The notes beneath the pieces were generated by a model. That model was given only the letters and a program-made list of their open reading frames with translations, was not told where the DNA came from and ran no database searches. The translations under genes and the position numbers were made by a program. Below, piece after piece: positions 3,039 through 39,186 of a stretch of DNA of 43,859 nucleotides; position 1 is the stretch's first letter; the number at the start of each line of letters is the position of its first letter. The stretch comes from a virus (taxonomy: Duplodnaviria > Heunggongvirae > Uroviricota > Caudoviricetes): positions 1 to 43,859 of IMG/VR virus record IMGVR_UViG_2908567220_000006. The stretch is one strand, 5' to 3'.

Positions 3039-3938
3039 TTACTTCATTCTGAAGACGCGTTGTGTCGTTGTTGTTTTGAATTTTTCGAATAACTCAGGGT
3101 GTACTGACTGGAATAGCTTCTGGTCGAATCTGTTGCTGATCTGAGATTTCCATGTGCAGAGCGGCTTTCCGTCCAGGGTCAGGACTGAGTGCTCTTGCAT
3201 GTACATCTTCAGCTTCTCTTCTGATATAGCTATTTCTTCTTCCAGTGATTTTCTGCGTGACTTCATGTCTCGTAGATCGTTGAATAGTGCGAGTGCCTTT
3301 CCGTCAGCCTCGATACTTGTCCCGGCATCTTTCTCAAACATCAGCGATATATCGCTTACGCTGGTAGCTTCCGGCGGGTTAAGATTTTTCACTCGGTCCC
3401 AGAAAGCGATTTCTTTTTCTAAGATTGCCTGGATAGTTTCTTCATCACGCTCAACCCGATAGATTCGGAAGTCGTCGCCACCGATAAGCACACCGAAAAC
3501 GCATACCTGTTTGTTTGTAACCATCAACCCGTGCATGGCCTGGGCCGTGTAATGCACAGGAATTGCATCTGTCTGGATTTCTCCCCATTCTTTGGCTTTG
3601 AACGGACTAACTGTTTTGATCTCAATGTTCTCGCCTGACGCTGCTTCTGCATCGATCTCAGCTGCAATAAAATCGTAATCACGGTGGATATAGCGGTTTC
3701 CGCGATGAACGATTTCCATCCCTGTTTCCTCAGAAAGCAGGTCTATTACGTATGGCTCCATACGCTGGCCACGCGTGAAAACTTTCTGCTTGCTTGGGTC
3801 TACTGGTTTGACACGTGGCTGTACCTTATCCAGATAAACCTCAAGCGGTGTGCGCCATGGGCTAATTCCAAGAATCCCTGCAACATCGCTTCCTCCGATG
3901 TATTTTGTTCTATCCATGATTCCAGCGTTCCGCATCAT
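3039..3938 (-). CDS. YqaJ-type viral recombinase exonuclease
   Basis: 299 aa; N-terminal motif KYIGGSDVAGILGISPWRTPLEVY typical of YqaJ/lambda-Exo-like nucleases; paired with RecT. Confidence 0.8.
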   Translation of the reverse strand: MMRNAGIMDRTKYIGGSDVAGILGISPWRTPLEVYLDKVQPRVKPVDPSKQKVFTRGQRMEPYVIDLLSEETGMEIVHRGNRYIHRDYDFIAAEIDAEAASGENIEIKTVSPFKAKEWGEIQTDAIPVHYTAQAMHGLMVTNKQVCVFGVLIGGDDFRIYRVERDEETIQAILEKEIAFWDRVKNLNPPEATSVSDISLMFEKDAGTSIEADGKALALFNDLRDMKSRRKSLEEEIAISEEKLKMYMQEHSVLTLDGKPLCTWKSQISNRFDQKLFQSVHPELFEKFKTTTTQRVFRMK

Positions 3939-4234
3939 GCCGCGTCCCTCTGTCCATCAAGCTGATCAGCCAGATCCCAGCGGGCGATAATTGCCATTGC
4001 CTCGCGCCGGTAGGAATCCATCAGTTCTTCGAACTCTGGACTGTCTTTAGCGGCCTCCAGTACTTCCTGGCGAACGCCTTTACCTGTTACAGCGTCGAAA
4101 GTTGAGGCTAGTTGATGAAGCCGGATGCTCTCGATCAGTTCAACTTGTCGGTCATATAGCTGTTCTGACAGGCGGTAGTCCTTGTCGAATGCCAGCATGA
4201 TTTTTTGAAGATTTTTCTGCTGATTAACGTTCAT
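3935..4234 (-). CDS. hypothetical early protein
   Basis: Start taken at MNVNQQ, which has a GGGAGGG Shine-Dalgarno 5 nt upstream; overlaps the exonuclease start. Confidence 0.5.
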   Translation of the reverse strand: MNVNQQKNLQKIMLAFDKDYRLSEQLYDRQVELIESIRLHQLASTFDAVTGKGVRQEVLEAAKDSPEFEELMDSYRREAMAIIARWDLADQLDGQRDAA

Positions 4235-4236
4235 TA

Positions 4237-4389
4237 TCAGCCCTCCCATATCTCGTTATCGTTGGCTACATCGCGAGCTTCTTTGCTGACGAAAGCCCAC
4301 TTAATGCCTTCCTGTAAGGTGCGGAACTTCCAGCTCATGAATCCGCATGCAGTAACGCAGCACCAACCGTTGATGATTTTCCACTGCAT
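4237..4389 (-). CDS. small Cys/Trp-rich hypothetical protein (50 aa)
   Basis: Own translation: MQWKIINGWCCVTACGFMSWKF...; first gene downstream of the putative leftward early promoter, the position occupied by kil/cIII-like genes in lambdoid phages. Below the ORF-track size cutoff. Confidence 0.3.
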   Translation of the reverse strand: MQWKIINGWCCVTACGFMSWKFRTLQEGIKWAFVSKEARDVANDNEIWEG

Positions 4390-4408: not shown

Positions 4409-4485
4409 TTACCGTTGAGGTAATGATTATGCGTATTTGGTTTGGTGTCAATAGATATGAGTTAAAAAAATTACCCTTTAGGTAA
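4409..4485. promoter_or_regulatory. oL-like operator pair (TTACC-N5-GGTAA at 4409-4423 and 4471-4485) with leftward early promoter
   Basis: Two perfect copies of the 15-bp palindrome between the repressor gene 3' end and the first early-left gene. Confidence 0.55.
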
Positions 4486-4542: not shown

Positions 4543-5127
4543 TTATTGTTTGTTTTTTTCGTTCTGGTTGATGACAAATTCAATGTAACTTTCGATCTTT
4601 GCTTTCTCGGTTTCGGGTAACAATGCGTAGCGCGAGCGGTCATAGTTGATGGTCGCAGGGTCGTGCGGGTGAATCAGTAATTCATAGCCGTGACGCCCGA
4701 ATGCGGATGCAACATTCTCCAGGGTGGAAATGGAAACGCTGACCTCATTGTTTAACAGGCGGCTGATTGTCACCTGGGAGACGCCAGATGCGCGGTGAAG
4801 TTTTCCCTGTGTTGAAAGGTCGCGGCTTTCGCTCATCCAGCGTTCCAGGTTGTGAGCCGCCAGTTGACCAATGTCGCTTGGTCCGACAGGCTGAAAACCT
4901 TCCTGAGAAAGCGAGCGATCGATATCAAGCCAGTTACGGGGTTTATTGGCGGCAGCTTCGATTTTTCGCGCAACCTGGTCGCCGATAACCTTCTTGCCAA
5001 GAGCCCAGCGGTTTACCAGATTTGCCTGAGTTCCAAGTTTTTCTGCCATCCGCGTCTGAACACCATTGAATTCACGGTCGATCAAGTCGTTGAGATTTTG
5101 CCTGCGGACGTCCTGGATACTTTTCAT
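4543..5127 (-). CDS. CI-like phage repressor with two tandem XRE-type HTH domains
   Basis: 194 aa; two HTH-like segments (GVQTRMAEKLGTQANLVNRW and LHRASGVSQVTISRLLNNE); divergent from a Cro-like gene; no S24 peptidase motif is apparent. Confidence 0.7.
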   Translation of the reverse strand: MKSIQDVRRQNLNDLIDREFNGVQTRMAEKLGTQANLVNRWALGKKVIGDQVARKIEAAANKPRNWLDIDRSLSQEGFQPVGPSDIGQLAAHNLERWMSESRDLSTQGKLHRASGVSQVTISRLLNNEVSVSISTLENVASAFGRHGYELLIHPHDPATINYDRSRYALLPETEKAKIESYIEFVINQNEKNKQ

Positions 5128-5663: not shown

Positions 5664-5864
5664 ATGGAAATCATTACACGTATTGATGCCGCAAAGCGCG
5701 GACTTAAACGCTACTACACCGGAAAACCATGTAAGCACGGACATGACAGTGAACGCTGGGTTTACAACGGACACTGTGTTGAGTGCACCATGGAATCAAA
5801 CCGTCGCATCAGGGCAGAGATTAAGCAGATCATGATTAATTCCTCCCCACAACACTCAAGCTGA
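5664..5864 (+). CDS. small putative zinc-binding protein in cII position
   Basis: Start taken at MEIITRIDAAKRG; Cys/His cluster (CKHGH...CVEC). Confidence 0.4.
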   Translation: MEIITRIDAAKRGLKRYYTGKPCKHGHDSERWVYNGHCVECTMESNRRIRAEIKQIMINSSPQHSS

Positions 5865-5879
5865 TAGCGGAGATTAATC

Positions 5880-6695
5880 ATGAGCAGACATGCAACAGAT
5901 TGGGCCTGGGAGACAGATCCAGGTAGCTCATCATTAAAGCTCATACTGCTCTCGATGGCTGACAGAGCCGATGAATATAACCTCTGCTACCCCAGCATAG
6001 AACGCCTCGTTAAAGACACTTGCCTGAATAAAAAAACCGTGCAGGCCGGGCTTATATCGCTCATGAAAATGGGGCTTATTTCAGATACCGGAGATAGAAA
6101 GGGAGCGACAAAAAGAGTGCGGGTTTTCTCTCTTAATATAACCAAAAACGGGAACATTAAAGGCAACCGGGAAGGGGGTAATGAACCCGAAAACGGTAAT
6201 GTTACCGAAAACGGGAATATACCCAAAAACGGGATGTTGAATGATCCCAAAAACGGGATGTTGAATGATCCCAAAAACGGGATCCAGAACCAGTCATATA
6301 ACCAGTCATTTAACCAAGAGAGGGAGAGCAGGACAAAAAGCGGGGATTCTGTGCCTCATGACCCCGGCGCAAACAACGCCGTGATGAATAACTTTGTTCC
6401 TCCTGGTTGGCCAGGGCAATTAGGCAAATTTGTCATGCATGAACAATGGCAACCATCAGATGACTTTCTTCGGAAAAGCTCATTGCAGGGGATCTACCTG
6501 GACAGTCTGCCAACGGCACAGGAACTTGCAGAGTTCAGAATTTACTGGATGGCTGAGGGTAAGGCATACCATCAGGCACAGTGGGAGCAGAAGCTGGCAA
6601 GGAGGCTGCAGATTAGCAGACAGAAGCAATCAACATTACCTGATAACAACGTTCCGCACTGGAACAGCCCTGAAGCATGGGAGGATTTCTTGTGA
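5880..6695 (+). CDS. replication initiator (O-like; N-terminal winged-HTH, C-terminal DnaT-like domain)
   Basis: 271 aa; Asn/Gly-rich repetitive linker encoded by iteron-like DNA repeats; directly upstream of the P-like helicase loader. Confidence 0.7.
   Translation: MSRHATDWAWETDPGSSSLKLILLSMADRADEYNLCYPSIERLVKDTCLNKKTVQAGLISLMKMGLISDTGDRKGATKRVRVFSLNITKNGNIKGNREGGNEPENGNVTENGNIPKNGMLNDPKNGMLNDPKNGIQNQSYNQSFNQERESRTKSGDSVPHDPGANNAVMNNFVPPGWPGQLGKFVMHEQWQPSDDFLRKSSLQGIYLDSLPTAQELAEFRIYWMAEGKAYHQAQWEQKLARRLQISRQKQSTLPDNNVPHWNSPEAWEDFL
6140..6285. repeat. iteron array (putative replication origin) inside initiator gene
   Basis: Six copies of CC(C/G)AAAACGGGAA-like units spaced 18-24 bp, including a perfect tandem 24-bp duplication cccaaaaacgggatgttgaatgat at 6222-6269. 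Confidence 0.55.
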
Positions 6696-7477
6696 ACAAC
6701 GTTTTTACCGCGATACAAAACCGTGACGGAGAAGCCCTTTCTCGCATGTCAGGTTATGAGCATCAGTACACCAACAATGATAACGTGGTGAACATGTCAG
6801 CAGAGAGGCTTGTTGATGCCCTTTTCAAACAGCTGAAACAACTGTTTCCGGCGGCAGTGGTAACCAACCTGAAGACGCCAGAGCAGGAAGTTGCTGCAAA
6901 ACAGCAGTGGATTGCTGCGTTTGCCGAAGGGGGGATCCGAACCCGTGAACAGGTTTCTGCTGGTATGCGCCACGCCCGCGCCAGTGAATCTCCGTTCTGG
7001 CCGTCGCCTGGGCAATTCATCAAGTGGTGTAAAGACAGCAAGATGGTTCTTGGCGTCACCATTGACGATGTGATGGCGGAGTTTAACCGGTACAGCAAGG
7101 AAAAAAGTTTATATCCTGGTGGTCCCGAAAGATTCCCGTGGCGACATCCGGTTATGTACTGGGTCGTATGTGATACCCGCCGTGCAATGTATCAGCGCCA
7201 GCTTAGCGAGATTGAGGTTGAGAAACACGCGCGCAAGCTGCTCGATGATTGGGCGAAAAAGGTGGCTTCCGGACAGCAGATACCCGATCCGGTGATCAGC
7301 ATACAGGCAAAGCCAGAACCCATGAGTACACCTCCGGACACAGGGAGAGACGTTTACCATCCACCAGGGCGAAGTTTCGGGTGCATGCCTAACGCCGCCA
7401 CCCTTGGTGGAATAACACCGGCGCAGTGGCTGATGGAGGAATACAGGCGAGGAAAGGCGGCAGGATTTATCAAGTAA
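6692..7477 (+). CDS. replication protein P-like helicase loader
   Basis: Motif SPFWPSPGQFIKWCKD matches the recalled lambda P motif RPFLPSPGQFVAWCRE. GTG start at 6692 with GGGAGG SD preferred over the ORF-track ATG at 6677. Confidence 0.75.
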   Translation: MNNVFTAIQNRDGEALSRMSGYEHQYTNNDNVVNMSAERLVDALFKQLKQLFPAAVVTNLKTPEQEVAAKQQWIAAFAEGGIRTREQVSAGMRHARASESPFWPSPGQFIKWCKDSKMVLGVTIDDVMAEFNRYSKEKSLYPGGPERFPWRHPVMYWVVCDTRRAMYQRQLSEIEVEKHARKLLDDWAKKVASGQQIPDPVISIQAKPEPMSTPPDTGRDVYHPPGRSFGCMPNAATLGGITPAQWLMEEYRRGKAAGFIK

Positions 7478-8579: not shown

Positions 8580-9121
8580 GTGTAACGGTTGAAAAGATTG
8601 ATGTGTTGTCATTCGTTATAACCGGTGCAGAGCGACTAGATCCGGTTAGAGTGATGATTGAAAACTACGAACCCGGTAAGGGAAGAATCACCATCACCTG
8701 CTACGGAAAAGCGTGGACTGCGGCTTGGTTTGCTATGGGCGGTGATGATGTGCAGACGTTCATTAAGCGGGTCAGCAACGAGTATCTAATCGGCTATTTC
8801 GACCCACAACTGCGAAGCACTGTCGACGATGACAACGATGCAAATCTGCTTTTCGTGAAGTCAGAAATCATAAAGTTACGAAGAGAGAGAGAAATAGACG
8901 CCGTACTGGCTCGCGAAATGTGGGACGAGGCGGAAAACGCCGATGACGTAAAAGAAAGCTGCTGCTGTTTCGGCGTCGGTAACAAACTACTGAATCTCTT
9001 TGGTGATGATCCGTGGTATGCCGACTGGCCAACGGTACCAAACCCGAAATACCAGTATCTGGAACGCGTACTTAATGCAGTGAGAGACGGTCTTAAGCAA
9101 ATAGAGAAGGTGGAACCATGA
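8576..9121 (+). CDS. hypothetical phage protein
   Basis: 181 aa; start overlaps upstream stop. Confidence 0.5.
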   Translation: MSVTVEKIDVLSFVITGAERLDPVRVMIENYEPGKGRITITCYGKAWTAAWFAMGGDDVQTFIKRVSNEYLIGYFDPQLRSTVDDDNDANLLFVKSEIIKLRREREIDAVLAREMWDEAENADDVKESCCCFGVGNKLLNLFGDDPWYADWPTVPNPKYQYLERVLNAVRDGLKQIEKVEP

Positions 9122-9417
9122 CTGTATGTCTTATTGATAAACGTCGACGTGGGCAACAAATACCATCTGTTGAAATGCCGAATCACACATGGTTTTGCGT
9201 ACTTGATATCGATGGTATGGATGCGTTGGTTGACACTCGTCATTACTGCGATACCGCAACAGCTACTCCGGCGAAAGCAAAGAAAATGGCTGCTCTGATA
9301 GAAAACTGGACTCCACCTGATGGTTGGTGCAATGGGAATGATCGAGATTGGCACGAAAAAATTAAGGGCTATATCTGCGATTTTTTACGTAAATGCAACG
9401 GATTCAGGGTGATGTGA
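9118..9417 (+). CDS. hypothetical phage protein
   Basis: 99 aa; start overlaps upstream stop. Confidence 0.45.
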   Translation: MTVCLIDKRRRGQQIPSVEMPNHTWFCVLDIDGMDALVDTRHYCDTATATPAKAKKMAALIENWTPPDGWCNGNDRDWHEKIKGYICDFLRKCNGFRVM

Positions 9418-9480
9418 CATGAGCGAAATTGACTATCAGGCTTCAATTGCCGCAGGCATTCGCATCAAAGAAGGTGAGTA

Positions 9481-9657
9481 ATGCGTGCGGCATGTATCGG
9501 CTTGTTACCGTACCCGACTCGTTTTTGGGCTTCTGCGCTAATTGCAAAGCCACATGTCCTGATGGCTGACAACATCATCCCGGCACCAAAGCGCCGCCAT
9601 ACCGGTATTGCAGCGGCACGACGAGCAGCAAAGAGACGCAGGAGAGCAAAGCGATGA
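9481..9657 (+). CDS. small basic hypothetical protein (58 aa)
   Basis: Own translation MRAACIGLLPYPTRFW...RRAAKRRRRAKR; ATG overlaps stops on both sides. Confidence 0.3.
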   Translation: MRAACIGLLPYPTRFWASALIAKPHVLMADNIIPAPKRRHTGIAAARRAAKRRRRAKR

Positions 9658-9830
9658 AAAACCGTAAGGCAAAACGACTTTTTTTACAGCGACCTGTGCG
9701 TGTGGTGGAGCTGGTTATTAGCAACCATAAGATAGCGGTACTCCATCCATTTGGTCAGGTGGCTTTTGCCGCAAAGCGTAAGCCTACTGCGTCACAGAAC
9801 AGGCGGAAGAAAGGGTACGCAGTAAGATGA
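9654..9830 (+). CDS. small basic hypothetical protein (58 aa), paralog of next gene
   Basis: Own translation MKNRKAKRLFLQRPVRV...; shares the MKNRKAK N-terminus and start context with the gene at 9827. Confidence 0.35.
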   Translation: MKNRKAKRLFLQRPVRVVELVISNHKIAVLHPFGQVAFAAKRKPTASQNRRKKGYAVR

Positions 9831-10015
9831 AAAACCGTAAAGCAAAGATTCTGTTAGTTCGTAGAAACGCTCCTGGCGTCTGGCAGTGGGTGAGACTCAG
9901 CAACCGACGGATGGGGTTGATGAAATATTACGGGATGATGGATTGTGGTTTTTGCAAAAAGTCCAGCGCGGCGCAAAACCGCTGGAGAAACCATTTGCGC
10001 ACTAAAGGAGAGTGA
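9827..10015 (+). CDS. small basic hypothetical protein (62 aa)
   Basis: ORF-track protein MKNRKAKILLVRRNAPG...; ATGA overlap with the upstream paralog. Confidence 0.4.
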   Translation: MKNRKAKILLVRRNAPGVWQWVRLSNRRMGLMKYYGMMDCGFCKKSSAAQNRWRNHLRTKGE

Positions 10016-10017
10016 TA

Positions 10018-10226
10018 TGGCTATTGCCGCAAGTTACACCATGCATCTCTATTGTGACTGCCGCCAGTGTACGGAAGGTGTATATCCAGTGCCAGACTTC
10101 GGTGAGTATATCGGTACGTCATGGTCTGGTTGTGCAAAAGAGGCCCGTAAAGACGGGTGGCGAATAAGCAAAGACAAAACTCGTGCTTTTGCGCCAGGGC
10201 ATAAAGTTTTAAGGATTAACAAATGA
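10018..10226 (+). CDS. small Cys-rich hypothetical protein
   Basis: Start taken at MAIAASYTMHLYCDCRQC, which has a GGAG SD upstream. Confidence 0.45.
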
Positions 10227-11191
10227 CCACTATTACCAGAGAAAACGCGGAAATTAAATCATTCATCACTGGTTTCCTGAGCGACCCGGCGCACGATAAC
10301 CAATCTACAGACAGCCTGCTTGCCAATGTGTTTCGTATCGCACAGGCATCGCTGGAAGCAGAGCCTATTGGTGAAGTTTCAGAGAAGCGATATGGCCTTG
10401 TTATGGATGGAACGGTAGACCTTGGCGGGAAATCAACTTATCGCATCATTAAGGGAGAAAAAGCGATGAAGTTGTTGCCGTTGGGGACGAAGTTTTATAC
10501 CGCACCGCCAGCGCCGGTAATACAGGCTGATATCGCGCAAGCAATTGAAAACCTAAAGCAAAAGTTAGTGGAATGCAATCGCTATAACTACTGCGCAGAT
10601 GCAGTTAAAGGTGTTGAGGATGCCAGCCGCGTCTTGGCACTCCAATATCAAAATATGTCAACGCCGATAACGCCGGAGGCCATTGAAAACGCAATTGAAT
10701 ACATCCGCAGTATCGCTTTTCACATCGATGAAGACGATTACCACGGCAAGCATATTGCGTATTTCATGCGACAAGCACTGGCCTGGCTGGAAGGGCATTC
10801 ATGCAGCGACGACAGACTGGGTAAAGCCGAGAATCAAACAGTACACGGCAACCAGGCTGCCGAATCCAATCGCGGTAATGAGTGGACCGGCAATCCTGAT
10901 ATTGATAACGCAATCATCATGCTCGACCGCATAGATACGCTGGAAAGTTGCGATGATGACCGTATTGAGGCTGTTAAGGCTGTTTTGCGTAGACTGGCTG
11001 GCAACTCTCCGGTAACTCCGGATGGTTGGGTTATGGTGCCGAAGGAGTTAACCCCGGAAATGATGAGAGCCGTTCAGATTAGAAGTGAGCTTGGAGGGTA
11101 TGCCACTTCCAATCTATCTGGTGCATACAATATGTTTTCTGAGTTCTGGAATGTTGCTGTCTCAGCTGCGCCTAAGGTTGATGATTTATGA
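10223..11191 (+). CDS. hypothetical phage protein (322 aa)
   Basis: Long ORF in operon; no motif assigned. Confidence 0.55.
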   Translation: MTTITRENAEIKSFITGFLSDPAHDNQSTDSLLANVFRIAQASLEAEPIGEVSEKRYGLVMDGTVDLGGKSTYRIIKGEKAMKLLPLGTKFYTAPPAPVIQADIAQAIENLKQKLVECNRYNYCADAVKGVEDASRVLALQYQNMSTPITPEAIENAIEYIRSIAFHIDEDDYHGKHIAYFMRQALAWLEGHSCSDDRLGKAENQTVHGNQAAESNRGNEWTGNPDIDNAIIMLDRIDTLESCDDDRIEAVKAVLRRLAGNSPVTPDGWVMVPKELTPEMMRAVQIRSELGGYATSNLSGAYNMFSEFWNVAVSAAPKVDDL

Positions 11192-11490
11192 ATCTATATC
11201 GCTGCCCATTCTGTGGTTCCACTGTGCTTAACATCGGATACTCATTCAGTATCAGAGGGAAAATGCGCTATGTGTCATGCAAATGTGGTGCCCAAGGACC
11301 AGAAAAACGAACTAAATCTGAAGCGATTTCTTCATGGAATAGTCGAATGAAAGTATGGGTTTATGATCCAGAAACCATATTAAACGCTGAAGAGCGCAGG
11401 AGAACGGAAGTCTATATTCATAACCTTAATGAAGATGGATTTACACCAGTGCTTGTAAAGGCTACTCCGCAGGAGGTTAACCGTGGCTAA
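11188..11490 (+). CDS. Lar-family restriction-alleviation-like protein (zinc ribbon)
   Basis: N-terminal CPFCGS...CKC motif as in Lar-family proteins. Confidence 0.5.
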   Translation: MNLYRCPFCGSTVLNIGYSFSIRGKMRYVSCKCGAQGPEKRTKSEAISSWNSRMKVWVYDPETILNAEERRRTEVYIHNLNEDGFTPVLVKATPQEVNRG

Positions 11491-11764
11491 CCTTCAACTT
11501 GCCGTCAAAGGTGAATACTTCGATGCCATGATTCGAGGAGAGAAAACGGAAGAGTATCGCCTGTGTAATAACTATTGGAATAAGCGAATTATGTTCCGGG
11601 AGTATGACCGCCTGATTATCACAAAGGGATATCCGAAGCGTGACGATTCCAGCCGCAGAATTGACGTTCCGTATGGCGGCTATGAAATCAAGACAATCAC
11701 ACATCCGCACTTCGGCGATAAACCGGTAAAGGTGTACGCGATAAAGGTGAATATTGATGGCTAA
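11483..11764 (+). CDS. ASCH/PUA-like domain protein
   Basis: LAVKGEYFDAMIRGEKTEEYR pattern resembles ASCH-fold proteins. Confidence 0.45.
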   Translation: MANLQLAVKGEYFDAMIRGEKTEEYRLCNNYWNKRIMFREYDRLIITKGYPKRDDSSRRIDVPYGGYEIKTITHPHFGDKPVKVYAIKVNIDG

Positions 11765-12095
11765 ATCAGCAGCAGAGCGCAAAGCCGCTCAGAGAGCCAG
11801 ACAAGCTGCATCTGGTGTGCGTAAGCTGGAAATTGTGCTTGATGCTCAGGAAATTGAAATGCTGGAGCGTAACTGTGCCACGCGTCGCCCCGGGCGTGCG
11901 CCTTACGAATTTGGTGAGTATATAGCGTTACTGATCCGCCAGGATGATGCACGCGTGCGCGGGCGTATAAAATCGATCAGCAGAAAATGTTGCGGTAAGT
12001 GCGGCGAGAGAGTTCCAGTTAATTCATGCCCGTGTAATGGTGACTCGCAATGCTGGGTGACTAAAGGCTGGCATGAAACGAAATTAATAGTGTGA
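11754..12095 (+). CDS. Cys-rich hypothetical protein; candidate late-gene regulator
   Basis: C-terminal CCGKCG...CPCNGDSQC cluster; last gene before a terminator and the terminase operon. Regulator role is inference from position only. Confidence 0.45.
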   Translation: MMAKSAAERKAAQRARQAASGVRKLEIVLDAQEIEMLERNCATRRPGRAPYEFGEYIALLIRQDDARVRGRIKSISRKCCGKCGERVPVNSCPCNGDSQCWVTKGWHETKLIV

Positions 12096-12144
12096 CATGT
12101 CACGAGTAGATTATGCATGATGAATTTGATGGGTTTTGAATACT

Positions 12145-12170
12145 GCCGCCAACTATGGCGGCTTTATTTT
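12145..12170 (+). terminator. intrinsic terminator upstream of terminase operon
   Basis: GCCGCC-AACTAT-GGCGGC hairpin followed by TTTATTTT. Confidence 0.5.
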
Positions 12171-12181
12171 GCATGGTACTA

Positions 12182-12214
12182 TTACCACAACGGTAACTAT
12201 TACCACGGTGGTTA
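12182..12214. promoter_or_regulatory. palindrome pair immediately upstream of small terminase start
   Basis: 12182-12196 perfect TTACCacaacGGTAA; 12200-12214 TTACCacggtGGTTA overlapping the SD. Confidence 0.5.
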
Positions 12215-12216
12215 TG

Positions 12217-12810
12217 ATGCCTGCTGAACCTAAAACCTATAAACGCAAATCAACGCAATTTAAGCCACTAACAGCAATGCAGGAGGCTTATTGCCAGTCA
12301 TACATCAAAACGCCTGAAAACCAGACTCAGGCAGCGATTAACGCAGGATTCTCCCCAAATACAGCGGCAGTTAAAGCCAGTGTCATGATGCGCGATGAAC
12401 GCATTCAAAAACGGATTGCCGAGTTGATGGAGGAGCGCAACAAACGAATGCGCGTCAGTGCTGATTACGTTCTCATGCGCCTGGTGGAGATCGACCAGAT
12501 GGACGTGATCGACATCCTCAACGACGATGGGAGCCTTAAACCAATCCGTGAGTGGCCGAAAATCTGGCGCACTACGCTTAGTGGCTTTGATCTGTCATCG
12601 ACCATCATGAACATGAACGAGGATTCGATAGAGACAATCCTCAAAAAAATTAAATGGCCTGACAAGGTGAAGAACCTTGAGCTGATTGGTAAGCATGTTG
12701 ATGTCAACGCGTTCAAAGAACGTCTGGATGTTAATGTGAATGTGACAATTGCTGATCGCATAGCAGCAGCCAGGAAGCGACTCAAAGAACGTCAGGATGG
12801 TAATCAGTGA
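12217..12810 (+). CDS. terminase small subunit
   Basis: Start at MMPAEP with GGTGG SD; about 197 aa, directly upstream of and overlapping the large terminase. The ORF-track start at 12136 would read through the operator copies. Confidence 0.7.
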   Translation: MPAEPKTYKRKSTQFKPLTAMQEAYCQSYIKTPENQTQAAINAGFSPNTAAVKASVMMRDERIQKRIAELMEERNKRMRVSADYVLMRLVEIDQMDVIDILNDDGSLKPIREWPKIWRTTLSGFDLSSTIMNMNEDSIETILKKIKWPDKVKNLELIGKHVDVNAFKERLDVNVNVTIADRIAAARKRLKERQDGNQ

Positions 12811-14282
12811 CAGATACAGCGTTATCTCCTGAAGAGCAGTTGATCGAGGATATTGCAGGGTTCACTCACGATCCGCTTGGCTATGCCCTCTATGCGTTCC
12901 CGTGGGGGGAAGAGGGGACTGAACTGGCACATGCCACCGGCCCACGTCAGTGGCAGGCTGATGCGTTCCGAGAGATACGTGATCACCTGCAGAATCCAGA
13001 GACGCGCTATCAGCCGCTTATGCTGGCACGCGCTTCTGGTCACGGTATTGGTAAATCCGCATTCATCTCAATGCTGATCAACTGGGGCATGTCCACTTGC
13101 GAGGATTGTAAGGTCGTGGTGACCGCCAACACCGACAACCAGCTACGAACGAAGACCTGGCCGGAAATTATCAAGTGGTCGAACCTTGCTATCACGAAAG
13201 ACTGGTTTACCTGTACCGCTACCGCGATGTACAGCAATGATCCTGGACACGACAAGCGGTGGCGAGCTGACGCAATACCCTGGTCTGAGCACAACACTGA
13301 GGCATTCGCCGGACTACACAACGAGCGCAAACGCATCATCGTGGTATTCGATGAAGCGTCGAACATTGCGGATCTGGTGTGGGAAGTTGCCGAGGGTGCG
13401 CTAACGGACGAAGACACTGAGATTATCTGGGTGGCGTTCGGAAACCCGACGCGTAATACCGGACGTTTCCGCGAATGTTTCCGCAAATATAAACACCGCT
13501 GGAAAACTGCGCAGATTGACAGCCGGACGGTGGAAGGCACCAACAAACAGCAGTTGCAGAAATGGGTTGATGACTACGGGGAAGACAGCGACTTCGTAAA
13601 AATCCGTGTGCGCGGCATATTCCCTGATGCATCTGAATTGCAGTTTATCCCTACCGGTCTTACTGACGAGGCAATGAAACGGGTGGTAACTGCTGCGCAG
13701 GTGGCACATGCTCCGGTGATAATCGGCGTTGACCCTGCATACTCCGGTGTTGATGACGCGGTGATATACCTGCGGCAGGGGCTGCACAGTAAGGTGCTGT
13801 GGACCGGCAACAAGACCACTGACGATCTGATTATGGCAAAGCGTATCGCTGACTTTGAAGACCAGTATCAGGCTGACGCGGTGTTCATCGACTTCGGTTA
13901 CGGTACCGGGCTGAAGTCAATCGGTGACGGTTGGGGGCGCACATGGCAACTTGTTCCGTTCGGTGGTGCGTCCACTGACCCGCAGATGCTTAACAAGCGT
14001 GGGGAGATGTTCAATGCATGCAAGACATGGCTGAGGCTGGGCGGCATGCTGGATGACCAGGAAACAGCGGACGAACTGTCGGCGGCAGAGTACAAAGTTC
14101 GCGTGGACGGTAAAATCGTTATCGAACCGAAGGAAGATATCAAGGAGCGGCTTGGGCGTTCGCCGGGTAAAGGCGATGCGCTACTGCTGACGTTTGCTTT
14201 CCCGGTGTCGAAGCGTCTGCGAATTCCCGGTCAGCAGAACCAGCAAGGCAAGGCCATTACAGATTACGATCCCTATGCTTAA
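12807..14282 (+). CDS. terminase large subunit
   Basis: 491 aa; Walker-A-like ARASGHGIGKS; GTG start overlapping upstream stop. Confidence 0.85.
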   Translation: MTDTALSPEEQLIEDIAGFTHDPLGYALYAFPWGEEGTELAHATGPRQWQADAFREIRDHLQNPETRYQPLMLARASGHGIGKSAFISMLINWGMSTCEDCKVVVTANTDNQLRTKTWPEIIKWSNLAITKDWFTCTATAMYSNDPGHDKRWRADAIPWSEHNTEAFAGLHNERKRIIVVFDEASNIADLVWEVAEGALTDEDTEIIWVAFGNPTRNTGRFRECFRKYKHRWKTAQIDSRTVEGTNKQQLQKWVDDYGEDSDFVKIRVRGIFPDASELQFIPTGLTDEAMKRVVTAAQVAHAPVIIGVDPAYSGVDDAVIYLRQGLHSKVLWTGNKTTDDLIMAKRIADFEDQYQADAVFIDFGYGTGLKSIGDGWGRTWQLVPFGGASTDPQMLNKRGEMFNACKTWLRLGGMLDDQETADELSAAEYKVRVDGKIVIEPKEDIKERLGRSPGKGDALLLTFAFPVSKRLRIPGQQNQQGKAITDYDPYA

Positions 14283-14333
14283 TCCTCTGGAGGGGATAAT
14301 GCTGCTGATATCCTCTGGTGAGGATAAAACAAA

Positions 14334-14359
14334 GCCAGCTCATCGGCTGGCTGTTTGTG
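14334..14359. terminator. bidirectional hairpin between terminase operon and convergent moron
   Basis: GCCAGC-TCATCG-GCTGGC stem flanked by T-rich tracts on both strands. Confidence 0.45.
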
Positions 14360-14372
14360 ACATGTCACGGTG

Positions 14373-14729
14373 TTATTGCTCGCTTAACTTCTGCTTCAGC
14401 AAGTAACCTTCGAGCATCCAGATTTTGTTTACAGCATTCTGCCGGGCAATCTTCCGACCAATTTCTGCATCAAAATTTTCCGGACTTGCACAGGCACTCT
14501 CTCCGGTGACGGTGAAGCCATTCTTCAGTACCAATACGCAGAAAGTCAGGAGGTCTGTAGATTTATGCGCTGTCCATGAATCGCCAACGCCCATATTGGC
14601 AGCACGAATGCCGTCATAAGCAGTAAAGAAATGCTCTTCAAGAATGATGCTTTCGATATATTGAGGCGTAACTCGCGGAGCGGTTTTGCCTTTCTCAACG
14701 ATTTCTTTTTCGATTTGCTGGTCGTTCAT
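14373..14729 (-). CDS. hypothetical protein, reverse-oriented moron in the late region
   Basis: 118 aa; AAGGTGAG SD; opposite strand to all flanking structural genes; a weak resemblance to small phage Gp49/Sf6 gp66-like proteins is recalled but unverified. Confidence 0.5.
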   Translation of the reverse strand: MNDQQIEKEIVEKGKTAPRVTPQYIESIILEEHFFTAYDGIRAANMGVGDSWTAHKSTDLLTFCVLVLKNGFTVTGESACASPENFDAEIGRKIARQNAVNKIWMLEGYLLKQKLSEQ

Positions 14730-14740
14730 AATCTCACCTT

Positions 14741-14764
14741 AAAAAAATGCCCGGCGAACCGGGC
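14741..14764 (-). terminator. intrinsic terminator immediately upstream of moron gene
   Basis: GCCCGG-TTCG-CCGGGC hairpin followed on the minus strand by TTTTTTT, about 10 nt before the gene's SD. Confidence 0.6.
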
Positions 14765-14840
14765 GAACTGGAAGCAATGAGTTATGCCTTCCGTGGCTGT
14801 ACTGGTTTACAGCATGAAGTCATCGCAATGGCGTCCTGCT

Positions 14841-14884
14841 GTAAAAAGGGCGGTGATAGTCCTTCAAGGGAAACCATCACCGCC
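14841..14884 (-). terminator. intrinsic terminator downstream of tRNA-Arg
   Basis: 9-bp stem GGCGGTGAT/ATCACCGCC followed on the minus strand by CTTTTT, about 45 nt after the tRNA 3' end. Confidence 0.55.
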
Positions 14885-14927
14885 AAGCACCTGGAACTTC
14901 TGGCATCACGGTCCTTAGGCGTGATTC

Positions 14928-15004
14928 TGGCGTGGCATGCAGGATTCGAACCTGCGACCAACCGCTTAGAAGGCGGTTGCTCTGTCCAGCTGAGCTAATG
15001 CCAC
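14928..15004 (-). tRNA. tRNA-Arg (anticodon UCU)
   Basis: Manual fold of the reverse complement: 7-bp acceptor stem GTGGCAT/ATGCCAC, D-arm GCTCAGCTGGACAGAGC, anticodon stem ACCGC/GCGGT with loop CTTCTAA, T-arm GCAGGTTCGAATCCTGC, discriminator G plus CCA. Acceptor stem differs from my recollection of host argU. Confidence 0.9.
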
Positions 15005-15326
15005 AACGCTGAGAGCACTTAGCCTGTTAAGGCGCCACACTTTGTCGCGGCTCCATAAATGCTCTCATCGTTGTGCCCTCGTCTCTTCCGAGGCGTCACA
15101 CCGAATCGCCGGGATGGTGAATCCCCGTGCGCGGAATAAAACCGCTCGACTTGCACATTCCGGCTACCTGGTTCGTTTGCCCGAGCAAGGGAGGGTGCCC
15201 CTTAAACGTATCCAGACCGCTATCGGCGCATGTGCCATACGCCGTACTGCTCAAAATAAAAGTTCACTCCACCTGTTCAATTTAACGACAAGCCAGTCAG
15301 GTTAATAACCGGAATGAACCCTTTGC

Positions 15327-15341
15327 TTACCTGAAAGGTAA
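15327..15341. promoter_or_regulatory. palindrome copy upstream of portal/head operon
   Basis: Perfect TTACCtgaaaGGTAA about 90 bp upstream of the first ORF of the head operon. Confidence 0.5.
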
Positions 15342-15431
15342 TAATTTGTGCGTTAAATGTCAACTGTCTACGATAAATAAATCATATGTGGTTAAATTGG
15401 TAATAATTTAATTGCGTACGGAGTCATTGAT

Positions 15432-33560: not shown

Positions 33561-33827
33561 GGCGATCACCTTTGTAGTTAGGTTAATCACCACCGCTGAG
33601 ACCAATCAGATGGTGGTGAACTGTGCAGAGTTGGTCTTACCGGCTACAAAGGAACCCGGCGCACCTTTCGGTGCCCCCACACAGCCCACCATAGAATAGG
33701 TGCGCTTTACACATAAAAAAACCGCTTATGCGGCATATGTGCCTCTGTAGTAATCCGGGAGACCAATCCCGGCACTGGATTTTGCCAGTGCCCGATTACT
33801 ATGGCACAAGAGGAGTGCGATGTAAAT

Positions 33828-34326: not shown

Positions 34327-37002
34327 ATGACGGTCTCAACCGAAGTTGACCACAACGAATACACTGGCAATGGTGTTACGACGACATTCCCTTACAAATT
34401 TAGGATCTTCAAAAAATCAGATCTGGTAGTACAGGTTGTTGACATTAACGAGAATATAAACGTACTGGTTCTTGATACAGATTACATCGTCACCGGAGCA
34501 GGAGGGTACAGCGGCGGTAATGTAATTCTCTCGAAGGCGTTGGCTAACGGTCATCAGATATCTATATCACGAGAACTACCAGCTACTCAGGAAACGGATT
34601 TACGTAATCAGGGTAAGTTCTTCGCTGAGGTACATGAGGATGCGTTCGACAAGTTGACCATGCTTATCCAGCAGTGCTTCAGCTTTCTACGCCTGTCCCT
34701 GCGCAAGCCCTCTTTCATCGCGAACTATTACGATGCGCTCAACAACCGCATTCGTAACCTGCGTGACCCGTCACAGGCGCAGGACGCAGCCACGAAGAAT
34801 TATGTTGATGGGCAGATCGTTGACAATACCAATGCCTGGAAAGCTGGTGATGACATTCTTGATCAGAAAATTGATAGCAATTTCCGAAGAACAATTCGGG
34901 TTCCTGAAAGTGATGTTGATATGGTTCCTACTATAGCTGCAAGAAAAAACTCGCTATTTGGGTGGAACAGCTCCAGTCAACCTGTCCCGATATTTTCTAT
35001 GACGGAAACTGCTGACCTGGCTATTAAGCTAGCAAGCACTGAGATGGGATTGGGTGGCAACCTTGTTGGTATTTACGATGGACGACCGCCAGTTGTTGTT
35101 ACCAATACAGTAACAGATAAAATCAAGGATGGTGCAGCCGGCCTGCGTAAGGATTTCGGAGCTGTAGGTGACGGATACCACGACGATACCGCCGCTTTTA
35201 ATGACTGGTGGGAATGCCTCATGGACCTTCTCTATAAGCGCCGGGGTGTTGAGAGCGACGAAACTGCAGTGCCGTTTATGCTTCAGAAAGGGCCCAGACT
35301 TCATATCGAAAACGGCACATTTATTTATAACGGTCCCGGACTAAATATCACTGATACTGACGCATTTGTTTTTATCGCCGATGGTGAGAGTTCGCTCGCT
35401 ACAAAAATTTTGCTTCCGGATGGTGTTTACTTATTCGATTTTGATAAAAACCCGGTTCATGCGCACCTTGCCAATCTGACCATTCATGGTGGGCTTGGTG
35501 CAGTGCGTTATAAATCTAAACAGCGTTCAACTAACAGCATTCATCTTTTTGAAAATCTACGACTGTCTCGATATAAAGAATGCGGTATTAGTAATAATGC
35601 TATCGATATGCCGTATTTTCGTGTCAGTGGCTCAATGTTTTACGGGGACCCGACAAAACAAACCGTTGGTGTTTGCGTTTCAGGATATGCCGCCGGTGGT
35701 TTTATTCGTGATTCCGTTTTCAGTGATAACCGATACGGCATTAAGTTGGCTGTAGGGAAAAACAGCGTCGAGAGCAACGGCCCTGCAACTCCATACCTTA
35801 TTCAGTGCAATGATTTTTACCGTACTGGTAATCGCGGAGGCTCTGCATCATACGACATCTGGATTGAGCCGGGGGTAACCAGCAATAATGCCGGTCGCGG
35901 TATAAAACTGAGTCAAAACAAGTTCGGACAGGAGAACTTAAAATCTCCGGATACGCATATTTTGATTGCTGATGCCGCTGTATCCGGTAGTGGCTTAGGG
36001 CTAAATGGCGACAGGGCTCACGTTGAAACGCAGTCGGCAGGTTTTGTTTCTGGGGTGAGGTTTGACGGCAATGATGTTAACTCAAACAGCGCCGGGTATA
36101 TTGCGCCGTTTATCCGGACATTTACACCTAACGTGGGGAATTTCAGGTTTTCTGATTTGTACGACAACGATATGCCATCACGCATCATTGAGTTTGCAGG
36201 TGGTATTACTCAGTCACAAATAGGGAACCTGGGGCGTACAAATGTGTTTGACGCGTCTATGTGCCTGGCATTGCAGAAAGGTGTTGAACCTAAGCTGCTA
36301 TCCAACATGAATGACGTCTTCCGCCTGATTGATCCTCTGAATTATTACGTGGGGCACCCGCAGTCAACACTGGTTCCTGTTGGGGGCCAGCAGGATGATT
36401 TTGAATTACTTTACTCCGGTCCTACGTCTACTATCGGACTTAGTAACGCCAGCCGGTCATCGCTCAATAATTCATATGGGGGAATATTTGAAGCAGCTGA
36501 AATCACAATGAATACAGACGAAGGTCGCGCAGTTGCGTCTATAAGTGGTGGGCTGGCGGGGCGTAAACACTGGATTGATTTTGATATTCGTCGAGGCTCT
36601 TCAAATCCCGTAGGCTCTGTTGTGATGGAGGTCATGGACCCTACAGGGGTAACCATTCTGTTTCGTAGAATAATCCTGGTTGATACCATTACTCGATGGC
36701 AAAAAGTCGTTCTCCCGTACATTCCTAATGTAAACGGAGATATTATCGTCCGGTTCCGCTCAAATGTTTATGTGGCTGGATCAGCTACGAATTTTGTTAT
36801 TGGCAACCTCAATGTTTACCGAAACGAAACGCCAGTGAATACGGGGCATAATAGCGGTCTGCGTATGCAGTGGGATCTGCAACACGCAGTGAAAGGCGCA
36901 CGACATGAATGGTATGATAATGCAGGTAATCTGAGAGCTAAAAATGGTGCGCCGACGTCTGCCACCGATGGCGTAATTATCAGTGCAAACCCGGTAGTGT
37001 GA
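34327..37002 (+). CDS. tailspike protein (N-terminal particle-binding domain plus beta-helix-like enzymatic domain)
   Basis: 891 aa; N-terminus MTVSTEVDHNEYTGNGVTTTFPYKFRIF typical of podovirus tailspike/fibre adaptor domains; long Gly/Asn/Ser-rich beta-rich body. Confidence 0.75.
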   Translation: MTVSTEVDHNEYTGNGVTTTFPYKFRIFKKSDLVVQVVDINENINVLVLDTDYIVTGAGGYSGGNVILSKALANGHQISISRELPATQETDLRNQGKFFAEVHEDAFDKLTMLIQQCFSFLRLSLRKPSFIANYYDALNNRIRNLRDPSQAQDAATKNYVDGQIVDNTNAWKAGDDILDQKIDSNFRRTIRVPESDVDMVPTIAARKNSLFGWNSSSQPVPIFSMTETADLAIKLASTEMGLGGNLVGIYDGRPPVVVTNTVTDKIKDGAAGLRKDFGAVGDGYHDDTAAFNDWWECLMDLLYKRRGVESDETAVPFMLQKGPRLHIENGTFIYNGPGLNITDTDAFVFIADGESSLATKILLPDGVYLFDFDKNPVHAHLANLTIHGGLGAVRYKSKQRSTNSIHLFENLRLSRYKECGISNNAIDMPYFRVSGSMFYGDPTKQTVGVCVSGYAAGGFIRDSVFSDNRYGIKLAVGKNSVESNGPATPYLIQCNDFYRTGNRGGSASYDIWIEPGVTSNNAGRGIKLSQNKFGQENLKSPDTHILIADAAVSGSGLGLNGDRAHVETQSAGFVSGVRFDGNDVNSNSAGYIAPFIRTFTPNVGNFRFSDLYDNDMPSRIIEFAGGITQSQIGNLGRTNVFDASMCLALQKGVEPKLLSNMNDVFRLIDPLNYYVGHPQSTLVPVGGQQDDFELLYSGPTSTIGLSNASRSSLNNSYGGIFEAAEITMNTDEGRAVASISGGLAGRKHWIDFDIRRGSSNPVGSVVMEVMDPTGVTILFRRIILVDTITRWQKVVLPYIPNVNGDIIVRFRSNVYVAGSATNFVIGNLNVYRNETPVNTGHNSGLRMQWDLQHAVKGARHEWYDNAGNLRAKNGAPTSATDGVIISANPVV

Positions 37003-37382: not shown

Positions 37383-37796
37383 GTGGTCATCATGTCCGCA
37401 TCGCTAACCGCTGATACAATAAATCAGGGGCTTAGCTACGGTGCGCTGGCGGCAGTTATCGCCGGCGTACCTCCTGAAGTGGCGCTGGGATCGCTGGCCG
37501 GGGCGGTAATTTTTGTTACCTCTGCAGTTGAGTATCCGGTCAAGCGCCGCGTTCTCCTGGCGCTACTTAGCTTTCTCTGCGGCCTTCTCTTCTACAAACC
37601 CACAGCATCAATCCTTATCGGCGTTGCCAGCATGATCCCCACCATCACACAGGACTCGTTCGAGCGGGGTATCGTCTACTCCGCCGGCGCGTTCGTTGCG
37701 GCAATTGTCGCAGTGCGGGTCGGGATATGGCTGTATCACCGCTCTGACAATCCGCGCGATTTAATCCCGGGAGGAAAAGACGATGACAGGCCATGA
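37383..37796 (+). CDS. putative holin (multi-TM membrane protein)
   Basis: 137 aa with several hydrophobic helices; first gene of the cassette ending in endolysin and spanins. Confidence 0.5.
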   Translation: MVIMSASLTADTINQGLSYGALAAVIAGVPPEVALGSLAGAVIFVTSAVEYPVKRRVLLALLSFLCGLLFYKPTASILIGVASMIPTITQDSFERGIVYSAGAFVAAIVAVRVGIWLYHRSDNPRDLIPGGKDDDRP

Positions 37797-38088
37797 TCTG
37801 CTGCTTATCGCTAATTCCATCATCTGCGGCGGGATAGCGCTGCGGGTGATGTTCTTCCAGCGCAACGGATCGCGCCATCGCCGCTGGGGCGGGTGGATAG
37901 CCTATTTCCTCATCGTGGCGGCAGCCAGCATCCCGCTGCGCACCGCGTACTCATACCTGTACCACTTCCCTATGACCGCAGATCTTTCTGAGGTCGTTAT
38001 CAATGCTGTGATGTTCGCCGCGGTGCTGAAGACACGCGGCAACGTCGTGCAAATATTCAAGATATCGAGGTCGCAACATGGACATTAA
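37783..38088 (+). CDS. putative holin/antiholin-like membrane protein
   Basis: 101 aa with 2-3 predicted TM helices; overlaps both neighbours. Confidence 0.45.
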
Positions 38089-38707
38089 CGAGTTTCAGAA
38101 AGCTGCCGGCGTTAGCCTGGCGCTGGCCACACGCTGGCATCCGCACATTGTGGCGGCCATGAAAGAGTTTGGCATTATCAAGCCGTTGGATCAGGCGATG
38201 TTTATTGCCCAGGCCGGGCATGAAAGCACTGGATTTACCCAGCTAGTTGAGAGCTTCAACTACAGCGTCAGCGGACTGGCTAACTTCGTTCGGGCTGGGC
38301 GTCTCACTCAGGGACAGGCTAATGCACTGGGTCGCCGTGCTGGTGAACCGCCATTACCACTCGAGCGCCAGCGCGCGATCGCAAATCTGGTGTACAGCAA
38401 ACGCATGGGTAACAATGCTCCTGGCGATGGCTGGAGTTACCGAGGTCGCGGACTTATCCAGATTACCGGCTTGAATAACTATCGTGACTGCGGAAACGGT
38501 CTGAAAGTTGACCTGCTGGAGAATCCTGAACTGCTGGCACAGGACGAATACGCGGCTCGTAGCGCGGCCTGGTTCTTCTCCTGCAAAGGCTGCATGAAGT
38601 ATATCGGCGATATTGCACGTGTAACTCTGATTATCAATGGTGGCAGGAACGGCATTGATGACCGGCGCGCGCGATACATCATTGCCAGTAAGGTGCTGGC
38701 TGTATGA
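38078..38707 (+). CDS. endolysin, glycoside hydrolase family 19 (chitinase-like lysozyme)
   Basis: Motifs [12 protein letters not shown] and [13 protein letters not shown] typical of GH19 endolysins. Confidence 0.8.
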
Positions 38708-39186
38708 TCTGGGCATTCGTAAAAGCATACTGGAAACAGTTGCTTATCGTGGCGATGCTTGCTGTTCTTGCCACATCAGGAGTTGTTGCCTGGAATATAC
38801 ACGGCAGCCGCCAGTACGATGCCGGGTATGCGCAGGCGGTAGAAGACCGCAAAGACGAAGAAGACAAAGTTCGTCAGTACTACGAACAGGAGAAAGTGAC
38901 CAATGAACGTGAAGCGCAGCATAGGATCGATCAGGCGCGCAGTGATGCTCTTGATGCTGCCGCTCGCGCTGGCAGGTTGCAGCAACAGCTCGTTGCCATC
39001 CGTGAGCAGCTCAGGCAGTATAACGCCATTGTCGGCGCTGGGACGTCAGCCGCAGACACCGGAGTTTTGCTTGCCGACGTGCTCAGCAAATCTCTCGAGA
39101 GAAATAGACAACTGGCAGAGTATGCTGACCGGGCAGCCGAAGCCGGAAGAGTCTGCGAAAAACAGTATGACACCCTGACAAGATAG
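38704..39186 (+). CDS. i-spanin (Rz-like)
   Basis: N-terminal TM helix then a charged coiled-coil periplasmic domain; follows the endolysin. Confidence 0.6.
38903..39178 (+). CDS. o-spanin (Rz1-like lipoprotein) embedded in the Rz frame
   Basis: Alternate frame wholly inside the Rz gene; signal peptide with lipobox LALAGC; Pro/Ser-rich mature part. Confidence 0.55.
   Translation: MNVKRSIGSIRRAVMLLMLPLALAGCSNSSLPSVSSSGSITPLSALGRQPQTPEFCLPTCSANLSREIDNWQSMLTGQPKPEESAKNSMTP

Follow-up and report, generated by a model that had tools for sequence, protein, structure and literature searches.

The window, by which we mean the whole stretch of 43,859 nucleotides (nt) analyzed here (IMG/VR record IMGVR_UViG_2908567220_000006, positions 1 to 43,859), is an epsilon15/phiV10-like prophage of the podovirus type in the genus Uetakevirus, as identified by megablast and by tblastn of the region. 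Matched Uetakevirus relatives were O157 typing phages 9 and 10, PAS61, TL-2011b, ZX5, phiV10, and epsilon15. We mainly focused on the boundary between the rightward early operon and the packaging genes, where a small Cys-rich gene ends in a 12-bp palindrome that is followed by an intrinsic terminator and terS. The features at this boundary, together with the other copies of the palindrome, are the following.

11757..12095, + strand: ribbon-helix-helix (RHH) plus four-cysteine (C4) zinc-knuckle protein (RHH-Zn protein), 112 amino acids (aa), PHROG 536, family of epsilon15 gp49, N15 gp46, and ZF40 gp22
12092..12103: site S1, perfect palindrome GTGACATGTCAC (14-mer TGTGACATGTCACG), over the TGA stop of the RHH-Zn gene
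12145..12170, + strand: intrinsic terminator at the early operon/terS boundary, GCCGCCA-ACTA-TGGCGGC and then TTTATTTT, from scan and folding
12182..12196: operator-like TTACC-N5-GGTAA, between terminator and terS
12214..12810, + strand: terS, the first late (packaging) gene, start at 12214/12217; PF03592 (Terminase_2), 1e-29; PHROG 51
14325..14354, - strand: intrinsic terminator of the 14373-14729 gene, AGCCAGC/GCTGGCT hairpin with a T-run; -15.5 kcal/mol, z = -2.8
14357..14368: site S2, exact GTGACATGTCAC in the same 14-mer TGTGACATGTCACG, between convergent terL and the minus-strand 14373-14729 gene
14373-14729, - strand: N4 gp49/Sf6 gene 66-family protein, in the insert between terL and the portal operon
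34763..34774: GTGACCCGTCAC, inside the tailspike open reading frame (ORF), fitting GTGAC-N2-GTCAC with centre CC

The product of ORF 11757-12095 matches PHROG 536 ('transcriptional regulator') at 1.7e-54 and no family in Pfam or NCBIfam. PHROG 536 comprises 726 clusters at 90% identity and 152 representatives at 50% identity, and it occurs in 149 phage records from Vibrio, Escherichia, Salmonella, Klebsiella, Yersinia, Enterobacter, Aeromonas, and Pectobacterium. Conserved residues were taken from an alignment of 60 diverse members. They outline a basic N-terminal helix, ERKxxQRxR, in which R8 and R13 are nearly invariant; a strand-helix-helix segment, where E54 and L59 are conserved, and a long helix after it; and a zinc-knuckle motif, C79-x2-C82-G-x2-L-P87-x-G-C ... 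G95-D-x2-C99. The conserved cysteines are residues 79, 82, 91, and 99, and conservation does not extend to the other cysteines in the window protein. The predicted model has the strand-helix-helix order of a ribbon-helix-helix fold, with a single N-terminal helix and the zinc knuckle, and the fold search matched it best to IncFII CopB/RepB and to the RHH-type repressors and antitoxins Arc, Mnt, CopG, MetJ, ParD, and TacA, with which it would share a palindromic target. A few family members also match RepB-RCR_reg, RHH_5, RHH_1, and TacA1 of Pfam weakly, below threshold. Unlike these repressors and antitoxins, the window protein adds a C-terminal C4 zinc domain, has its site at the 3' end of its gene, and lacks a toxin partner. 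The product is probably a DNA-binding regulator, uncharacterised and widespread in temperate phages. The literature search found nothing on the function of the PHROG 536 family, nor on an RHH-zinc late regulator in Uetakevirus.

The zinc domain was compared with two known groups. P2 Ogr and P4 Delta are, like the window protein, small Cys-rich phage proteins proposed for late control. The Cys spacing of Ogr is C-x2-C-x22-C-x4-C, whereas that of the window protein is C-x2-C-x8-C-x7-C, and the Ogr_Delta hidden Markov model (HMM) gave no match. DksA and TraR share more of the layout, namely a long helix followed by C-x2-C-G-x2-[LI]-P, with the last Cys at the start of the C-terminal helix. TraR and YbiI were the best sequence matches of the family profile against the PDB (E ~0.04; hhalign probability 58%). 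However, no family member matched PF01258 at E = 0.1 or better, no fold match to DksA/TraR was found, and the counterpart of the polymerase-entering helix of TraR belongs to the RHH core in the window protein. A TraR homolog search returned close relatives only, and an improved profile was not obtainable. For TraR/DksA homology of the C-terminal half, the sequence signal is marginal and not significant, and the Pfam and fold searches were negative.

The palindrome occurs twice in the window as an exact 14-mer, while 0.003 copies of the exact 12-mer are expected per 44 kb by calculation. S1 lies 41 nt upstream of terminator 12145-12170. S2 is flanked on one side by the stop of the minus-strand gp49/66-family gene and on the other, 2 nt away, by the hairpin of that gene's terminator. 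The tailspike copy may be due to chance or to coding. The palindrome next to the Cys-rich gene and its second copy at S2 are new relative to the preliminary description of this DNA, and the literature search did not find the palindrome string in any paper. Two other roles for the palindrome were considered and rejected. As a nut-like RNA hairpin it would reach -2.9 kcal/mol, which is no better than shuffled sequences, with a conserved C and G in the loop. As the -35 element of a class-II-activated late promoter, its left half (GTGACA) pairs with CATGAT 18 bp on, the sole sigma-70-like match in 8900-13000; epsilon15 and Salmonella phage 65FD have GTGACA-17-TAAATT, and the arrangement is absent in ZF40, the L018 group of E. 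coli Uetakeviruses, lambdoid prophage L077, and N15, and at S2. We rejected the -35 role as a general rule because the next ATG follows the site by 9-19 nt in many lineages and the -10-like element is not conserved.

The linkage between gene and palindrome was measured for the exact motif GTGAC-N2-GTCAC in 134 loci encoding 79 distinct proteins, which were not picked by the palindrome. The site is within 10 nt of the stop codon for 46 of the 79 distinct proteins and within 1 kb downstream for 14 more; 10 in the sample had no site in the available flank. Downstream of the gene we counted 95 sites in 355 kb, compared with 8 in 390 kb upstream, where ~0.7 would be expected overall (745 kb / 4^10). 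The linkage is seen in podo-, myo-, and siphoviruses, down to ~30% protein identity, and covers Uetakevirus, ZF40, the lambdoid prophage, AH07, N15/Kpn74, P2-like prophages, and Vibrio K303. Representative positions of the motif relative to the stop codon of the homolog are the following.

Salmonella 65FD, Klebsiella Kp4865-1, and ZX5 (Uetakeviruses): overlapping the stop
Pantoea AH07, centre CT (GTGACCTGTCAC): overlapping the stop
Yersinia P2-like phage, 41% identity, TGTGACGCGTCACA: overlapping the stop
N15 and Klebsiella Kpn74, GTGACTGGTCAC: overlapping the stop
Pectobacterium ZF40 (myovirus), 67% identity: 3 nt after the stop
Lambdoid prophage L077: 7 nt after the stop
Vibrio K303, 32% identity: 226 nt downstream
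Clade of P2-like prophages, 38% identity: ~540 nt downstream

Complete genomes carry about three exact copies each (three in epsilon15, ZF40, N15, and K303). A counterpart of S2 stands after terL in many relatives, 2262-3073 nt past the stop of the gene, and in epsilon15 it is at 2142. The L018 subgroup separates the palindrome from its other neighbours: in L018 and 15 similar IMG/VR loci, a gene of ~69 aa (MPKIRYDLEDMRD...; 3860-4069) lies between the palindrome and the terminator/terS, and the palindrome stays with the RHH-Zn gene, not with the terminator. The central dinucleotide is uniform in most genomes, being constant in epsilon15 and ZF40 (AT) and in N15 (TG/CA). It differs from lineage to lineage, and the beta-strand sequence changes along with it; the half-sites and the basic helix do not change. 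Reading of the site by the RHH protein would be expected to give such a pattern. GTGAC-N2-GTCAC is thus most likely the recognition site of the ORF 11757-12095 protein, and we infer from these sequence comparisons that the RHH-Zn protein, rather than another one, binds the palindrome. The gene-linked palindrome, marking a widespread and putatively DNA-binding RHH plus zinc-knuckle module, is the most secure new result.

Two relatives have further elements close to the palindrome. In Kp4865-1 (L006, ~4793-4840), a strong promoter, TTGACT-N17-TATACT, directly follows the palindrome, overlaps a near-consensus LexA box (TACTGTTTAAATATACAGTA), and drives a UmuD-like gene inserted before terS. In Yersinia phage 201.16 (L002), the 4297-4342 stretch has a degenerate second palindrome (TGTGACGTGTCGTG) 19 nt after the first, and an SOS-box-like CTGT-N8-ACAG (~4462-4477) stands before the next small gene, which may be compared with the tum region of phage 186.

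In Uetakeviruses, the intergenic sites are tied to terminators as well. The terminator equivalent to 12145-12170 is annotated in phiV10 and epsilon15, and the 14325-14354 hairpin also faces + strand transcripts leaving terL. Of the epsilon15 sites, one overlaps the gp49 stop and is separated by 21 nt from the terminator hairpin that follows, another comes after terL beside a hairpin, and the third, overlapping the gp18 stop, directly precedes the gp18 terminator. All five intergenic sites, namely S1 (+), S2 (-), and epsilon15 39612 (+), 19517 (+), and 2142 (-), are within 0-47 nt of a predicted terminator and immediately upstream in its direction, as judged with a permissive predictor, which places a call within 60 nt of 20% of randomly chosen positions. 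This 5/5 arrangement led us to propose that the bound protein alters termination at transcription-unit boundaries.

In the proposed mechanism, the product of ORF 11757-12095 would be a small dimeric sequence-specific DNA-binder composed of a basic helix, an RHH core, a long helix, and a C4 knuckle. The tie between the site and the stop codon of its own gene suggests loading in cis: with S1 over the stop codon, freshly made protein could load at the end of the delayed-early operon. As it accumulates, the protein would modulate RNA polymerase at the unit boundaries marked by intergenic sites. The most likely effect would be read-through of terminator 12145-12170 by early-operon transcription into terS-terL, that is, a delayed-early to late switch, with the zinc domain as a candidate contact for the polymerase or a partner. 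Both the action on transcription and the direction of the effect are inferred here from the placement of the sites. Control of read-through into terS-terL is plausible in Uetakeviruses, and we give the read-through switch a probability of roughly 0.4.

The gene order resembles Q-qut-tR'. As with lambda Q, phage 82 Q, and N15 gp40, the gene is the last in the delayed-early operon, a DNA element directly follows it, and an intrinsic terminator separates it from the first late gene. However, the RHH-Zn protein is half the size of Q-type proteins, shares no sequence or fold similarity with them, and has no conserved promoter at its site. The symmetric palindrome that would be its site is found far from promoters too, and its homologs coexist with real Q genes. 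Searches of Pfam, NCBIfam, PHROG, and the PDB and the fold search gave no homology to Q families, and homology to Ogr/Delta or any antiterminator was not found.

Several observations weigh against the read-through switch. Outside Uetakeviruses, only 1 of 12 sites is next to a terminator, and we rejected terminator adjacency as a family-wide rule. Some sites are inside ORFs (ZF40 gp08, ZF40 cII, and N15 repA), and others are only 10-19 nt away from the start codon that follows, too close for a promoter to fit in between. Minus-strand read-through at S2 would produce antisense terL RNA, with no obvious benefit. No significant similarity to RNA-polymerase-binding proteins was found, the TraR resemblance being marginal. 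N15 has the Q-like gene 40, whose own promoter-terminator pair is 2 kb away from gp46, AH07 has antiterminator gene 52 beside the holin, and the Yersinia P2-like phage 201.16 (NC_070914) has the Ogr-like gp51 besides the homolog gp13. The late genes of ZF40 begin ~5 kb from the homolog, and homologs are often far from late genes, in some cases by kilobases.

A further point on the same side comes from the repressor-type sites. TTACC-N5-GGTAA occurs 10 times in the window, compared with 0.02 expected (4409, 4471, 5183, 7515, 7577, 12182, 15327, 32780, 33828, and 35817). Three copies flank the CI-like repressor gene, further copies precede the C4/antirepressor region, and others precede terS (12182), the portal operon (15327), and the tailspike. 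The epsilon15 record annotates equivalent sites as repressor-binding. Since such sites stand before late units, the repressor may control these units directly, whether or not the RHH-Zn protein takes part. In 12170-12214, the promoter scan gave no sigma-70-like site, and only a weak TATTAC -10-like element was seen by eye.

These results bear on the view of the preliminary description that the Cys-rich protein is the best positional candidate for late control. The likely nucleic-acid-binding nature of the protein (PHROG 536, RHH plus zinc knuckle) and the cis element beside the terminator speak for that view; the coexistence of homologs with Q/Ogr, their distance from late genes, and the missing Q, Ogr, or antiterminator homology speak against it. 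Of the early-rightward ORFs that were compared with Pfam or PHROGs, none matched a Q-like antiterminator, in agreement with the same description. Its observation is confirmed and its interpretation partly supported: as a late-gene switch, the RHH-Zn protein is plausible and not established.

The same palindromes can be read with the opposite effect. The protein bound to them might act as a roadblock or insulator that halts or limits transcription, reinforcing the terminators at the ends of units, shutting off the genes 3' of its own gene, and shielding terS-terL against convergent or read-through transcription; late expression would not be promoted. A roadblock directly before a strong intrinsic terminator would be redundant, as at S1 and epsilon15 19517. 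Blocking entry into terS would also need an independent late promoter, and the 12170-12214 interval is without a sigma-70-like site. We regard such a block as unlikely.

An accessory role of the protein seems improbable too, although it has evidence in its favor. The gene and site would here form a mobile module that controls a neighbouring accessory, antirepressor, or excision gene or serves a replication or segregation task, while CI-type repressor operators and another factor run late transcription. The contexts of the module are indeed diverse. It follows gpA in P2-likes, precedes xis in AH07 and L077 (the AH07 homolog closes a leftward operon), and lies in the middle of the right arm in N15, and it coexists with Q or Ogr in other phages. 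N15 has exact GTGAC(TG/CA)GTCAC sites at 28550, 33237, and 39269; among these three, one overlaps the gp46 stop, another is within repA, and another is ~25 nt upstream of the -35 of a promoter-like TTGACG-N18-TAGAGT facing the antirepressor operon. The ten TTACC-N5-GGTAA copies, including those before terS and the portal operon, also fit this role. On the other hand, the sites of Uetakeviruses and K303 cluster at packaging and late-unit boundaries (of the three K303 sites, those at 21342 and 35942 each precede an ATG by exactly 19 nt, and one of these ATGs is the terS start), and no consistently co-occurring partner gene was seen.

The half-sites of the palindrome are also those of matS. MatP is an RHH-based dimer, as is predicted for the window protein, and both systems have GTGAC/GTCAC half-sites and a few dispersed sites per replicon. 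An RHH dimer might therefore bridge or mark two or three matS-like sites per phage genome, organising phage DNA or interfering with host MukBEF or Ter functions and leaving transcription unregulated. The spacer is 2 bp here, whereas it is 3 bp in matS (GTGAC[AG]N[TC]GTCAC), and the shared half-sites could be a coincidence. The 13-bp matS (GTGAC-RNY-GTCAC) is not present in the window, and the N3 version is absent even with one mismatch. MatP combines a four-helix bundle, RHH, and coiled coil, whereas the window-protein model has the single N-terminal helix and the zinc knuckle. We rejected sequence homology to MatP, as the hhalign probability was 0.85% and MatP was not among the PDB profile matches. 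A MatP-like architecture is quite improbable. The more specific idea of a phage 'mini-MatP' is very improbable; there, an RHH protein related by descent or by function to the Ter organiser would have a zinc knuckle in place of the coiled coil for partner binding, and its sites would bridge or mark phage DNA or engage or evade host MukBEF and the divisome. A phage MatP-like system was not described in the literature searched.

It is highly improbable that the palindrome serves a host factor or a different phage protein, or that it is just a recombination junction of mosaic modules: conservation does end exactly at the palindrome and then becomes mosaic (terminator and terS, 69-aa insert, umuD-like gene, xis), but the motif stays beside homologs at 29-40% identity in unrelated phage backbones and its central dinucleotide varies with the protein lineage. 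Most exact 14-mers in the IMG/VR scan do not adjoin a homolog within the fetched fragment (19 of 82 do), which would favor another binder; a collection of such size is, however, expected to yield unlinked matches by chance, as are fragments that carry a second copy and lack the gene. We rejected this reverse association, from 14-mer to gene, as uninformative, given chance matches and fragmentary loci.

The RHH-Zn gene is the last of three small ORFs that are open on the + strand, as the preliminary description had it: 11188-11490 (100 aa), 11483-11764 (93 aa), and 11754/11757-12095 (113/112 aa). The Lar-like ORF begins at 11188 with ATGA, its start over the stop of the upstream ORF; the ASCH-like ORF begins with GTG at 11483 within the 3' end of the Lar-like ORF; and the Cys-rich ORF begins with ATG at 11757, eight bases before the ASCH-like stop, with AAGGTG eight bases upstream. 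These start-stop overlaps with each other and with the upstream gene make the three ORFs distal members of the rightward early operon, and by their arrangement they are predicted to be translationally coupled. The two upstream genes are the following.

11188..11490, + strand: Lar-family zinc-ribbon protein, 100 aa; residues 1-54 form the Lar domain, followed by a conserved ~45-aa extension
11483..11764, + strand: ASCH-like (PUA-like beta-barrel) protein, 93 aa; PHROG 625, 7e-50

ORF 11188-11490 passed the curated cut-offs of both TIGR03655 (3e-16, 59.5 bits; cut-off 39.6) and PF14354 (7.8e-9, 36.1 bits; cut-off 28.6). It also matched PHROG 599 over residues 1-99 (1.8e-18), within which its C-terminal 45 residues are conserved. 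The CPFCGS...CKC motif is present, and the four-Cys zinc ribbon is C6-P-F-C9 ... C31-K-C33 (CxxC ... CxC). By profile, the protein is a Lar-family member, for which restriction alleviation is only predicted. Compared with Rac prophage Lar (restriction alleviation), to which the two HMM cut-offs and the four-Cys ribbon relate it, the window protein has an additional conserved C-terminal half.

For ORF 11483-11764, the Pfam ASCH model (PF04266) stayed below its gathering score (15.7 vs 21.2 bits, E = 0.026). The AlphaFold2 (AF2) model, with a predicted local distance difference test (pLDDT) score of 84, found ASCH proteins as its best Foldseek matches in the PDB. The top match was 3iuw (probability 0.99, E = 0.014, the E-values being modest), followed by PF0470 / PH0355 (1xne and 2z0t among the hits), YqfB 9kyf, and ZmASCH 5gus. 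NCBI names the homologs ASCH. The fold is thus predicted to be ASCH-like, in line with the original assignment. PADLOC models matched none of six proteins (the operon ORFs and their neighbours). The 'anti-restriction cluster' that had been suggested is therefore reduced to the Lar-like gene, with no PADLOC or other match. Both the Lar-like gene and the ASCH-like gene are ordinary accessory members of the operon, and nothing was found that ties them functionally to the RHH-Zn protein.

The remaining layout follows the epsilon15 type. The left part of the window contains a leftward early operon and then the CI-like repressor and a Cro/CII-like gene. The replication genes lead through a run of small accessory genes to the Lar-like, ASCH-like, and Cys-rich ORFs, the terminator, and terS and terL. 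After terL come a minus-strand insert with tRNA-Arg and then the portal, head, and tail genes. The lysis cassette was found 3' of the tailspike, as described before, and the integrase follows it. The other genes are the following.

4543-5127, - strand: CI-like repressor
5880-7477: O-like and P-like replication genes
14928-15004, - strand: tRNA-Arg(TCT), in the terL-portal insert
34327-37002: tailspike
37783-38088: holin, 3' of the tailspike
38078-38707: GH19 endolysin, 3' of the tailspike
38704-39186: Rz-like, 3' of the tailspike

Several smaller elements were also seen. A small Cys/His-rich ORF at 5664-5864, between the Cro/CII-like and replication genes, belongs to PHROG 1081 (unknown function) and is possibly another zinc-binding regulator of the early operon. 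The 9429-10015 region has no long ORF, and no tandem array was detected there. It contains a 21-nt repeat, GATGAAAAACCGTAAGGCAAA, at 9653 and 9826 (173 nt apart), and each copy begins a small paralogous ORF (MKNRKAK...). The insert between terL and the portal operon spans 14283-15430, and two 18-nt repeats, each internally palindromic, follow terL closely (14282 and 14310). C4 antisense RNA (33609-33696, - strand, Rfam 78.6 bits) lies beside isrK (33715-33791, - strand, 74.7 bits), and together they make up an antirepressor module of the P1/P7 type, under antisense control, with the tail genes on one side and the tailspike on the other. The Rfam scan of 9-13 kb gave no match.

Phages of the epsilon15/phiV10 type serve as reporter and typing phages for O157 and Salmonella, and they lack homologs of Q, Ogr, and Mor/C. 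For these phages, a positional guess has become a testable system of three parts, namely the PHROG 536 protein, the 12-bp site, and the terminators. The half-site identity with matS raises the separate question of cross-talk with host chromosome organisation. If the protein does alter termination, the system would be a new DNA-site-dependent switch from early to late transcription. Otherwise, it would still be a widespread RHH plus zinc-finger module, putatively DNA-binding, with a site at its own stop codon.

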